Shown here in pieces: positions 36,891 through 48,603 of a DNA stretch of 64,000 nt. Made by a program: the position numbers and the translations under genes. Under the pieces are notes generated by a model, which was not told the origin of the DNA, did not search any database, and worked only from the letters and a program-made list of their open reading frames with translations. Numbering within the stretch: the stretch's first letter is position 1; the number at the start of each line of letters is the position of its first letter. Origin of the DNA: Eledone cirrhosa (taxonomy: Eukaryota); NCBI GenBank assembly GCA_964016885.1, contig OZ024747.1:36022001-36086000 (forward strand), given 5' to 3'.

Positions 36891-39800
36891 ATATATATAT
36901 ATATATATATATATATATATATATATATATATATATATATATATATATATATATATATATATAATTATATATACATATATATATACATATATATATATAT
37001 ATGTATATATATATATACATATATATATATAAATATATACATATATATATATATATATATATACATATATATATATATATATATATACATATATATATAT
37101 ATATATATATATATATATATATATATATATATATATATATATATATATGTAGATAAATCTACCAAGAGTTTACGGTAGTGTCCAATCCGTATGAAGAACT
37201 CAATGTATTCCGGATATCATGGAAAGAAGAGATGTAATGAAAATCCACTTTCGGTGAAAGATAAACGGTATACAGAGTCAAGATAAAATATTAAGCAAAT
37301 AATGAATAAACAATTCCTTATATTAAACAAAAAAAGTTCATTATTTAACGATCGTTTCTAGGGTATATATGTGTTATAATTGGTATGCATATTCAACAGA
37401 TCTATGTACAAAATTATACAAAATTATACAAATTATCAAGATTAAATATACATACCTAACACATATATACGCCGTCTTCAGAAATAATGAAGTATATTTA
37501 TTGATAATAACAACAATTCAAAATATCAGTTCAAAATTGACCAATGAAAACACAAAGGGTCAAAAGCAGTTCGGTGTGTGTATATACATGTAAAATCCTT
37601 ACACATATTTTACAATAATGTGTGTATAATTTGTATGCGCATACTAAAAAGATGGATGCAAACACAAAATTTCAAGGTTAATATCTCTGTAAGCTTAATG
37701 CGCTGATAAGATGCGCATTGATACTTATGGAGTCAAGCATATAAATATATTTTTTCATACTCACACATATCAGTATAATCACACATACATGCGCGTATAT
37801 GCATAAATATACACATAACCACGAACATACAAACACACACACACACCCCCACTCACATTTATATATGTGGATATAAAATCATAAGCACATAGAAATTAAG
37901 TCACTCACATAAAACACTGGCACACACATTTCAAGATCAAGATACGGAAATTAGGTGGGAGGGGGGGGAGGGGTCAGTATTCAATTGTCTGAGCAGACTG
38001 CCTAATATAAATGTATCTATAAATTAAGAAAAATAAAAAAATAAAAACAATAAAATATAATAAATAGAATATAATGTACATACACATACAGATATATATA
38101 CACATACATACATGTACGCGCACATAGAGATATTTACGCATACACACATACACACATACATATACAGTCATATACACACATACACTTACACGAACATACA
38201 CATACACATATAAAAAGATATATATATACACACACACACGCGCAACACATACACACATACACATATATATAAAAAATAGATAATAAAGATATATATCCAT
38301 ATATATATATATACACACACACATATATATATATATATATATATATATATATATATACACATACATATACACATACATACACATACATCTAAATATACAT
38401 ACACATACATACACACATACATGTACATACATGTACATACATATACGCACATCGATATACATATATATATATATATATATATATATATATATATATATAC
38501 ACTCACATAGACATAAAGATACATACACACACAACTTACATACACACGTATATATATATATATATAGATGTACCTTCATACATAGAATTAGATATATAAT
38601 CATACATACATATGCACCTACTTATACTCATATAAATAAATACATACGCTTCCATATATGTGTATATACATAAAAAACAATACAACCTCACCAAACTCAG
38701 ACATACAAATGAAAATAATAATAAAAAGGCATATGTATATACATACACACACGCATTAATAGAGATATATATATATATATACACACACACATACACATAT
38801 ATATATACATACACACACACATATATACACATACATATATATATATATATATATATATATATATATATATATACGCACACACATAGACTCATATATATAT
38901 ATATATATATATATATATATAAACATATATATCCACACACTCATACCACCATAAATACACATACAAACACCCACATGTATATATATATATATATATATAT
39001 ATATTTCATTACTCTTATATATACACATATTATATATACATACACAACCTCACTTATACACATATACACATAAGTTATATTACAATAATAATAAAGAATA
39101 ATATACATATATATATATACATATACATATATATATATATATATATATACATACATACATACACATACATACATACACATAAATATATACATACATAAAT
39201 ACACACATACGAATAAAGACATATATTCACACATAGACACCTATATATATATATATATATATATCTATATATATATATATACATATATATATATATATAT
39301 ATATATACACACATACACACACACACACACAGACACACATACACACTCACATATATATATATATATATATATGTGTATGTGAGTGTGCGCACATACACAT
39401 ATATACACACACACATACAAACACACACAAACACATACATATGCATACGTGCACACACACACACATATATCACATAGATACGAAGATAAACATATAAATA
39501 GAGAGACATACATATATATACACAACACACATACACATACATACATACACGCATATACATATACATACATATATACACGTATATATATTCCTATATATAC
39601 AAGCATACACATACATACACATATATACACATACATACACATATACATACAACACATTCACATACACATACATATATAATACATATATATACATATATAT
39701 ACATACATATGTATGTACAATCATATATACACACACAATCTTACATTCATATTTGCATGCTCATATATGTATTTTTATATTTAGATATAAATACCCAAAC

Positions 39801-41030
39801 CTATATAGACACCTACCTACATATATATTCATACATAGACGCTTACAAATACAGATGATAATAGTATGGGGGAAAGGGGGGGTTTGGAGAAGGGGATCAA
39901 AGTAAATATATGTTTCAAGAAACATATAATATTTTCCGTATCTTAATTCAATGTATGTTCTTACATATTTTCAGTGCTAGGAAATACGAAATCTATGCAT
40001 CTCAAAATAAATAAGTATACCATTAATCATATGTTAACTAAACCAAAGATAGTCAACATATTGATTTCTAAGGTGTAAATTAGTTAGGTTTATAATATTT
40101 GAAGCAGAATTTTGAAGTCAAACAGTAGTAGATTATTAATTACATTATAACTAAATTAAAGTTAATAACGTTATGGTATCAATATTAGGAGATGAATTTA
40201 GTAATAGGGAAAAGAAACCCAAATAAAAATAAAATAAAATATTACATCGGTAGTAACATATAAATTATATGTTAACTAAATTAAAAATTATATATTTATT
40301 TCAATAGTATACGTTAATTAGTATATGTTAATTAGGTATACAATACATAAAGCAGATATTGTATTTCATCAATAGCATAATATAATTATATGCAAATAGA
40401 AATCAAAATTAATACGCATACATATACATATACATATACATACACATATACATACATATACACACATATATATATATATATATATATATATACACATATA
40501 CATATATACACACATATACATACATACAGATACACATACACAACACACACATATACATATACATATACATATACATATCTTTTTCAAAAAATTGCACAGA
40601 ATATATTAGGTATATATCCAAAACACATCCCATTCTATGATTACATGACATTCTGCAATTCGTCTGTATAAGGATACTAATTTTAAGCAAATTAAAATAA
40701 AAGTTTTAGGTTGATTAAAACTAAAACCAAATAATAAATATATTTCCAAAATGTATATTAATTAGGTCTATAATACTAAAAATTCTTTCTCCGTCATTGG
40801 ATACATGATATTATTTTGTTATATTTTATCTGTAAAAGAATTATAATAAAAGGTTTAAATAAATTAAAATTAATCTATAAATTAAATTACTAAGTATATA
40901 TTAGTAATATTTAAAGGTTTTTCACAATTTATGATTACATAATATTTTCTCATCTGTAATAAAATATTAATTAAATTAAATTTATAGGTTAACTAACATT
41001 TAAATTAAATTAATTTCTAGAATAATGTTA

Positions 41031-43009
41031 TTAATTAGGTTTATAATATTTAAATGTTTTTTTTAATTTATGATTACACGATATAATTAATTCCTGTCGT
41101 TTATTTAATAAGATATCCTTAGACTTCATTATTTCAAATAGTTCTTGGGAACATAATCTACATTCCTTTCTATTATTTTGATAAGGGGTGGCTCTTTTGA
41201 GCACACTCCAGGTCAAATCATATTTTATATTCTTATTTTTATAACTATTGATTTTTTCTGCTAGAGATGTTGTATTAGCCAGTGCGGCATTTTTAAAACT
41301 ATGTTTGTGGGTATTAAACCTTGTCTTAAAATTGTTAGAGGTAGCTCCTATATATGAGCAAATAGAATCTTTAGTTTTAACATTACATTTATAGACTATG
41401 TTGTTAACAAGACAATTCCCTTTTAATGGGCAGTTTGTTTTGTTTCTACAGTTACATCCTTTCGTTAATTCTGTATTTGAGGAGATATTATTGTTAATTT
41501 GATGTACTGGTGGTATACTTATGGTTTTCTTACATTTATATGCATTATATGCACTTATATTTTGTTTTATGTTATTTGTTGTAGAGTATGAGAATTTAAC
41601 TGTAGACCTATTTAAGATTTGATGGTATTTGTGGTTTGGCGGGAAGTTTTTCTCAAGGATATAAAAAAATTTTTTAGCAATATTATCCTTAACTTGTAAA
41701 TTAAAAGGAGCATTATACCAAGTAACTCGTCTATTACGGTTTCTATGTTGTTTATTATTTTTATTATTTTTATAGGTTGTATCATGATTTTTACTAGGAG
41801 GATTAATGTTAATGATCTCACCACAACTATTTTTAGTTATATTTGTAGATTTAGGTGTTTTATCTTTTTTATTAGGAGTTTTATTATTAATATTTATTAT
41901 AGTTGTATGATGAGTAGTTTTTTGAGGGTTACTATACTTTATATTAGAAGATTTAGTATTTTGGGGTATATTGTGGGTGGCATTTAGGTATGTACTTTTC
42001 ATTTGGTGTTTGTTGGTAATATTATGCTGTATGCTTTCAGTATTTTTAGTAGAAGGTATATACTCTAATCTATTTTTGTGGCCACTTCTATCTAGAGCTT
42101 CATTATAAAAGGTCGCATTTTTATCAAATACATCTTGGTTAGAAGAAAGGTTAGAAATTCTAAGTGATATATTATATGCAAGGTTTTTAAGGATAGATTT
42201 AGGGTGATTAGATTGTGAGTGTATGTAATGTAAGTTTTGGTTAGGTTTATGGTAAGGTTGGTATATACCCGTAGCTAAATCTAAAGTTATATCTAGGAAA
42301 TTTACTACTTTACTTGTTTTTTCAAAAGTAATATTAAGATTATAATAGTCTTTAAGGAAAGTTCTAATATGTTTTTTGTTTCTTTCGATTTCTGAAAGGC
42401 TAAGGTTGTTAGAAAGAAGAAGACAGTCATCACGATATAAACCACCTTTGAGGTGGGGAAAAGAGGCATTTATGTTGAAAAGGAGAAAGAGGCCCACAAG
42501 ATCAGTAATTTGGGCGGAATCGCTTGAACCCATAGTAATATCAAAAAGATTACTGTATGTGTTTCTGGTCCAGTATTCATTCTGAAATTCAATAAGTGTT
42601 AGTCTAGCATGTGTAATAATGTTAATGTCATCCGAAGTTAAATTAGATCTATTTTTAGCAAATATTAATGCTTTGTTCAGGAGTATGGGTGATATAGAAG
42701 AATAGTAATTATCTATATCAAATTGTAGGAAAGAAGCAGAAGATTTACACCTAATATTTTTAAACCAATTAATTACCTGGGAGGTGTTTTCCCAGAGTGG
42801 TAAAATAACGTATTTTCTTATTTGTGGGATGACTCTATCTAAAATTTTTTTGCTAATTATTCCAATATCTGATTTGGAGGGACATATAAGTCTAATAGAA
42901 GGATTAGAGTTAAAGTTAGATTTGTGATCTTTCAGGTTGAAGTGTGGTCTTTTCAATGCCAAAGGTTCAGTTCTATCTTCAATGTTTAGTTTTTTTACTA
43001 TGTTGTGTG
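41031..43009 (-). CDS. PLE RT plus GIY-YIG endonuclease, open frame, 5'-truncated
   Basis: NLKDHKSNF, RLICPSKSDIG, QFDIDNYYSSI, TMGSSDSAQITDLVG, GGLYRDD, VNFLDITLDL, YIHSQSNHP, N/K/T-rich insert, WYNAPF, CNCRNKTNCPLKGNCL, IVYKC...YIGATSNNFKTRFNTH, CRLCSQE. Confidence 0.92.
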
Positions 43010-48360: not shown

Positions 48361-48515
48361 TTCATTATTTCTGAAGACGGCGTATATATGTGTTAGGTAT
48401 GTATATTTAATCTTGATAATTTGTATAATTTTGTATAATTTTGTACATAGATCTGTTGAATATGCATACCAATTATAACACATATATACCCTAGAAACGA
48501 TCGTTAAATAATGAA
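48361..48515 (+). ncRNA. Hammerhead with long stem II insertion (mirror 37337-37491; diverged copy ~48790-48922, minus strand)
   Basis: ttcattattt-CTGAAGA-c-ggcgtatatatgtgtta...taacacatatataccc-ta-GAAA-cgatcg-TT-aaataatgaa; 10 bp stem I; diverged copy has TA at the cleavage site. Confidence 0.82.
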
Positions 48516-48603
48516 CTTTTTTTGTTTAATATAAGGAATTGTTTATTCATTATTTGCTTAATATTTTATATATATATATATATATATATATATATATATA
48601 TAT

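Follow-up and report, generated by a model that had tools for sequence, protein, structure and literature searches.

How does a retroelement come to lie in a genome as two nearly identical copies, joined head to head into one long palindrome? The question is raised by a unit in Eledone cirrhosa (NCBI GenBank assembly GCA_964016885.1, contig OZ024747.1), within a stretch of 64,000 nucleotides (positions 36,022,001 to 36,086,000 of the forward strand) that we refer to as the window and from whose first letter all coordinates below are counted. An earlier note, made from the sequence alone, had described the unit as a young palindrome with two open reading frames (ORFs) of a Penelope-like element (PLE). 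We find it probable that the unit records one recent retrotransposition event, in which a PLE assigned by its motifs to the Hydra clade inserted into a (TA)n microsatellite and both nicked target strands primed first-strand complementary DNA (cDNA).

Anatomy of the palindrome

A BLAST search of the window against itself returned an inverted match of about 5.4 kb (37283-42589 against 43136-48569; bit score 8644, E-value 0), far above chance. The unit, its parts and its flanks are listed here, with arm lengths and the right-arm block taken from a global alignment in which the left arm was matched to the right arm after reverse complementation:

37149-48569: whole unit, 11,421 bp
36890-37148, no strand: left target microsatellite, imperfect (TA)n, period 2, 129.5 copies, 92% matches
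37149-37282, minus: tail of 134 nt, at the 3' end of the left copy only, with the same end base as the older relative at 48604
37283-42565, minus: left arm, 3' part of a putative Hydra-clade PLE, 5283 bp
37337-37491, minus: left type I hammerhead motif, core from 37481, predicted cut after 37347
37492-41030, minus: left 3' spacer, about 2 kb of it degenerate (TA/CA/TG)n
41031-43009, minus: left ORF, 5'-truncated at 43009, with predicted reverse transcriptase (RT), N/K-rich linker, CxCx5C and predicted GIY-YIG endonuclease (EN)
42566-43009, minus: segment A, 444 bp, coding, single copy, in the longer (left) copy only
43010-43158, minus: extra copy of segment B, 149 bp, fold-back of the right copy's 5' end
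43159-43163: axis loop of the central hairpin, 5 nt
43158-48569, plus: right arm, the more strongly 5'-truncated copy, without the tail, 5412 bp
43160-44692, plus: right ORF, 510 codons, without the RT motifs through motif A
44693-48360, plus: right 3' spacer, starting with two to three degenerate ORF-end repeats
46741-46833, plus: 93-bp block between two (TA)n runs, in the right arm only and once in the window
48361-48515, plus: right type I hammerhead motif, core 48371-48377, predicted cut after 48505
48567-48603, no strand: right target microsatellite, (TA)18, overlapping the arm end by 3 nt
48604-48922, minus: older relative, 77% alike, a 3' end that carries a hammerhead motif and a tail and flanks the young insertion

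These lengths bear out the earlier description of a palindrome of about 11.4 kb with near-identical arms of more than 5 kb. Both copies have their 5' ends at the centre and their hammerhead ends pointing outward, which makes the arrangement head-to-head; the longer, left copy measures 5861 bp. Microsatellite (TA)n lies outside both ends of the unit, and no target duplication is visible inside it. At the centre, 43010-43158 pairs perfectly with 43164-43312 over 149 bp around the 5-nt loop.

The global alignment recovered three substitutions between the arms, exactly at the positions previously picked out by eye (37946/47906, 38723/47111 and 42489/43234). It also recovered the microsatellite length differences (six, each of 2-18 bp) and the block restricted to the right arm, put earlier at about 90 bp and measured here at 93 bp, whose placement may slide within the adjoining (TA)n. 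Arm identity is 99.94%, and three substitutions in 5283 bp (0.057%) agree with the earlier claim of a recent insertion. With an octopod substitution rate quoted in PMC13282606, used as an example only, this divergence would give an age of about 80,000 years and an upper bound of about 230,000 years; RT errors or conversion between the arms would shift it, and we call the insertion recent and no finer.

Element identity and its 3' end

The left frame extends stop-free to 43025 and encodes 664 amino acids, the first six from the joined segment, with the motif A Asp at residue 103, YRDD at residues 197-200 and the first Met at residue 165. Over their common part the left and right proteins are identical. 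Homologues made up 1288 of 8000 scored candidates (median length 703 amino acids), the best being about 40-49% identical in local alignments. The two ORFs are stop-free and of PLE type, as the earlier note stated, but they are not complete: both are 5'-truncated, with about 150 N-terminal residues missing on the left (including RWK and DKT) and about 300 on the right (including RT motif A). Across 120 homologues, RW[KR] is found in 82 and DK[TS] in 107, in the region that is cut off in both window copies. Because both ORFs lack their 5' part, the window copy was dead on arrival, and the same truncation rules it out as a full-length active master. With both copies cut inside the ORF, the upstream end and the direct (tandem) pseudo-long terminal repeat (pLTR) that it may have carried are absent.

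Searches against Pfam gave no useful match for the ORFs or for 14 aligned homologues, and a PDB sequence search with the EN alignment returned two weak, unrelated matches only. Structure models were more informative. For the N-terminal part of an AlphaFold model, the top Foldseek matches were TERT (E-value 1.9e-7), and VIA-align gave Z scores of 15-16 to RTs, with DRT2 (16.0) and yeast telomerase (15.4) tied within 1; YRDD and the motif A Asp are invariant in the 14 aligned sequences. These models indicate a telomerase-related RT domain. The C-terminal 144 residues, modelled alone with 51 relatives (pLDDT 89), best matched I-TevI (Z 8.8, root-mean-square deviation 2.3, 89 aligned residues), followed by T4 EndoII (Z 7.4) and UvrC (Z 5.9). 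A Pfam GIY-YIG match was obtained for 5 of the 52 aligned members and not for the window's own sequence. The model thus predicts a C-terminal GIY-YIG endonuclease in the same ORF as the RT.

Between the two domains lie an N/K-rich linker of about 100 residues and a CxCx5C motif. The motif's C524, C526 and C532 are invariant in 14 of 14 aligned sequences, and the pattern is present in 118 of 120 homologues. Within the EN, C622-C625, E628, N641 and C650-H652 are invariant, with no second Cys pair in the GIY-YIG core and no CCHH. The Hydra clade is described by the same motifs, namely a CxCx5C linker, CxxC and CxH around E and N, and no CCHH (PMC8557442), and it further shares with the window unit an RT with C-terminal GIY-YIG, a 3'-end hammerhead, a (TA)n target and an inverted 5'-truncated partner. 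On these motifs we assign the element to the Hydra clade of endonuclease-positive (EN+) PLEs; together with the RT and GIY-YIG model matches, they uphold the PLE identity proposed earlier. Neptune, Nematis and Penelope-Poseidon were rejected on the lack of their CCHH EN motif, which Neptune and Nematis combine with a CX2-5CxxC linker, and Naiad and Chlamys, which have an N-terminal EN and no canonical hammerhead, on the C-terminal EN and the hammerhead motif seen here. A Foldback or miniature inverted-repeat (MITE) DNA transposon, which should have a transposase and matching terminal inverted repeats that meet the target flush on either side, was rejected as well, since one end is 134 nt longer than the other and RT and GIY-YIG are encoded in the arms.

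By motif scan, each arm and the older relative contain a hammerhead core with a 10-bp stem I, a stem II and a short stem III that is palindromic; the stem II region of the right motif measures 116 nt. The lowest-energy fold of the region lacks stem I. Rfam gave 147 matches with E-values of at most 1 in 36500-49500, all below the gathering score and none to a hammerhead family; all were microRNA, snoRNA or sRNA look-alikes from microsatellite or hairpin sequence. We speak of a candidate hammerhead ribozyme motif in both outer ends, as judged from its sequence pattern. Type I hammerheads with a short palindromic stem III are said to act as dimers (PMC4209133).

The 3' spacer is unusual for the clade. 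From stop codon to hammerhead it spans 3678 nt, against a median of 112 nt (33-438) in 45 relatives, and the stem II region of 116 nt compares with 10-25 nt in 44 of these 45. Of 77 metagenome loci, 71 have a closed C-terminus; no motif was found in 26 of these, and the 45 relatives are those in which stop and hammerhead could both be located. There is some redundancy among the loci, and the breaking of short-read contigs at microsatellites biases the comparison against long spacers. The right spacer begins with ORF-end repeats (44778-44884, 44908-45033 and a weaker one at 45333-45470), two of which beat all 200 shuffles while the third is near or above the 95th percentile, and part of the spacer is for this reason old element sequence. 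The older relative, which is broken a few bases upstream of the hammerhead core, shares its end base with the left tail and has a long stem II too, so that the tail and the long stem II are family traits.

The repeat-filled spacer itself may be part of the family or may be captured DNA, as in Pen1_Av of Adineta vaga, where a captured spacer of 0.9-1.5 kb separates the ORF from the 3' pLTR (PMC3846280). Unlike that of Pen1_Av, the window spacer is 3.7 kb long, rich in microsatellite and headed by old ORF-end repeats. Listed Hydra families measure 1.1-3.0 kb, against 5861 bp for the longer window copy although it is about 150 codons short. The Hydra table in PMC8557442 includes Penelope-13_HM, with an inverted 5'-truncated copy, and Hydra-1_Obim, a complete octopus element of 2507 bp whose protein, judged by eye, differs from that of the window.

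Formation of the head-to-head insertion

From the inverted BLAST rows we hand-picked 21 local inverted-repeat units between 580 and 63405 (about 1 per 3 kb), leaving aside sub-hits, pairings of dispersed copies that lie far apart, and one row that overlaps 35493-36041. Fifteen units adjoin (TA)n at one end only, two of these with an offset of 1-3 nt, and none adjoins it at both ends; the chance of adjoining (TA)n is about 1.5% per end. In 13 of these 15 units the opposite arm has a tail of 33-162 nt that runs up to the following (TA)n, and in the remaining two there is no (TA)n within 200 nt. Hammerhead motifs lie inside the arms of 5 of the 21 units, and 8 out of 8 point outward. Tail-less ends overlap the phase of (TA)n by at least 4 nt in 7 of 15 units, against 7.4% of control positions (p = 5e-5; the units are not all independent, and the unit studied here overlaps by 3 nt). 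The window is a nest of PLE-type insertions from several clades.

Long near-perfect palindromes are normally unstable, as noted earlier, but this one is no chance survivor: it is one of 21 inverted-repeat units in the window and has the usual insertion form of EN+ PLEs (PMC8557442, PMC3846280), for which an inverted 5'-truncated partner and a one-sided tail of 30-40 bp are typical (PMC8557442). Penelope of Drosophila virilis, Pen2a_Av of Adineta vaga and the Naiads show a head-to-head partner, a one-sided tail and a small junction palindrome, as here (PMC3846280, PMC8557442), although the arms of our unit measure 5.3 kb against about 0.2 kb in inverted-pLTR insertions, and its tail 134 nt against 30-40.

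In the course of events that we favour, the GIY-YIG domain would cut both strands of (TA)n, and each free 3' end would prime first-strand cDNA on element RNA, one starting at the 3' terminus of the tail and the other at a short TA-like overlap that lies 134 nt inside it. Growing towards each other, the cDNAs would stop at different points (43009 and 43158). The shorter would then fold back, copy 149 nt and be joined to the end of the longer, and second-strand synthesis and repair would fix the palindrome. During LINE-1 twin priming, the second nicked strand likewise primes internally at a short overlap, which yields an inversion without duplication; here, by contrast, both cDNAs would cover the same 5.3 kb.

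One base suggests the direction of the fold-back. At 43088 the central copy of segment B has A, as does the right arm (43234), whereas the left arm has G. For the state of the family we used public sequencing runs, all from other samples: parts of the stretch occur in 17 of the 21 runs listed, and half or more of it in 4, whose contigs were compared; 13 others, in which the share was at most 0.20 or the data were raw restriction-site-associated DNA (RAD) reads, were left out. All four have G at this base. In one of them G accounts for 25446 of a summed depth of 25567, and in the remaining three for the whole depth. With G in the family and the left arm, and A in the central copy and the right arm, the central copy was most likely copied from the right-arm strand.

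Biochemical data fit priming from both strands. In vitro, a PLE protein acts on both strands, which it cuts and extends, with two start sites that bound the tail (PMC11167929); two such defined 3' starts bound the tail of Poseidon PAc of Anolis, and cutting and extension of both strands would give the layout of the window unit. PAc belongs to another clade and has its tail inside the ORF start, whereas by eye the window tail holds no reading frame resembling a Hydra N-terminus. Two cDNAs begun at opposite nicks can only end up head to head, so that the antisense template considered in PMC3846280 would become unnecessary.

Several points weigh against this course of events. No difference in start site between the strands was seen in vitro (PMC11167929), and equal start sites on both strands would by themselves predict some units flush with (TA)n at both ends; as 0 of 15 are, some order is needed, for example two primers on one RNA. 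The base shared by 43088 and 43234 could stem from later conversion inside the 149-bp hairpin. Fold-back pairing amounts to only 1 nt, and the joint at 43009/43010 has no perfect overlap. Direct PLE evidence (hammerhead, ORF or shared ends) is limited to 8 of 21 units, two of the 15 belong to a single family, and the units were picked by hand. No read or contig of the four runs spans the unit or its two private joints, which in other samples is no test of absence.

Finally, the same sequence is fitted by a hairpin made from a single cDNA with two extra template jumps, an alternative that deserves attention even though we hold it clearly less likely than priming from both strands. RT would copy from the tail to segment A, jump back to recopy segment B, self-prime by fold-back, realign on the first B and copy its own cDNA outward, stopping 134 nt short at a TA-like overlap with the other flank. 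Such a course would account for the central hairpin, the shared base, the near-identical arms, the strictly one-sided tail and the TA overlap at tail-less ends, and junction palindromes are read as self-priming in PMC3846280. Its cost is the two extra jumps and a later deletion to explain the 93-bp block, which is in the right arm and not in the supposed template. It also leaves the defined second start site seen in vitro (PMC11167929) without a reason, and in the unit at 5292-8870 the long copy is the tail-less one.

It is improbable that a host process, whether a break with hairpin capping or a replication fork fold-back, doubled a single earlier insertion. The tight 5-nt hairpin with 1-nt axis pairing would suit it, a tight hairpin with minimal axis pairing being also a product of fold-back repair, but the duplicated sequence stops within the 3' end of the element, right at (TA)n, with no host flank included, and the pattern recurs in 15 of 21 units, from at least three PLE types. 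An assembly artefact, in which a read folded back or two copies of the family were wrongly joined through the 149-bp repeat, is very unlikely: the assembly is gapped (200 N at 25595-25794), the arms are 99.94% alike and the private joints are missing from the contigs of the four runs, but in a mirror image segment A and the tail would both recur and the sequence would continue into the left flank, whereas the right end meets different DNA, the arms differ by the 93-bp block and six microsatellite lengths, and the one-sided layout recurs in units of the 15 whose arms are only 86-99.6% alike, all of which sustains the earlier argument against a simple fold-back.

Within the favoured priming from both strands, a more specific and speculative proposal can be made. 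A Hydra-clade family more than twice the described length, with about 2 kb of microsatellite in its own 3' region, might supply new (TA)n targets with each insertion, open to its own copies and to other PLEs, in a feed-forward manner, and head-to-head insertions might arise by twin priming on one RNA, with the first nicked strand at the tail end and the second at the internal TA-like site. If true, twin priming on one RNA would explain the lack of units flush at both ends among the 15 and settle PLE inversions without an antisense template. A literature search, mostly without subscription journals, found no published account of this case or of PLE twin priming.

Neighbouring insertions, family copies and significance

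The unit at 5292-8870 has arms 99.4% alike over 1.2 kb and contains, at 6483-7721 (plus strand), an open RT-thumb/GIY-YIG frame of 413 amino acids with Neptune-like Cys motifs. Another, at 13435-16177, has arms 99.6% alike and an open RT frame of 694 amino acids (13976-16057, minus), Naiad-like by eye; its relatives at 3355-3650 and 23320-23465 share one internal stopping point, and one further unit shares its ends. Degraded Hydra-clade coding fragments, 35-64% alike in local pieces, lie at 23899-25492 (plus), 31754-33433 (minus) and about 57200-57340 (minus), and more type I hammerhead motifs at 4285, 21825/21990, 23265, 49445/49603 and 63055. Beside the unit at 16270-16876, frameshifted RT-thumb and GIY-YIG fragments of another PLE occupy 16807-17780 (plus). 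Broken frames at 9338-11850 (minus) resemble a Helitron Rep/PIF1 helicase by eye, and those at 30357-31548 (minus) belong to a repeat-borne protein with a Cys-rich N-terminus, inserted in a degraded Hydra copy. Among the 77 metagenome loci, 10 contain some inverted repeat, and in Hydra loci L023, L051, L054 and L063 a short copy of the 3' part precedes the ORF in inverted orientation.

Many contigs are 95-100% alike to the stretch in all four runs, and in the best run 89 of 367 contigs compared are at least 99% alike. The native join of segments A and B is present in 3 of the 4 runs. Upstream of 43009 the family continues in loose contig ends in 2 of the 4, one of them of 255 letters, the longest listed. 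The family is multi-copy with young members, and it is plausible that it is still active. The window copy differs from the contig majority at several sites, so the four runs are not its direct source. None of the 21 listed runs containing parts of the stretch was an RNA run.

The layout of the unit is known; what sets this copy apart within the Hydra clade is the long, repeat-filled 3' end. The origin of PLE head-to-head inversions is called open in PMC3846280 and PMC8557442, and a near-unmutated 5.3-kb pair with a marked fold-back, together with one-sided tails and TA overlap, provides a test case with testable predictions. Should the 3.7-kb spacer belong to the family, it would extend the size range of Hydra elements and link them to the spread of microsatellites. 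RNA transcribed across the unit would fold into a duplex of 5.3 kb, which may be a substrate for small RNAs or for adenosine-to-inosine (A-to-I) editing.

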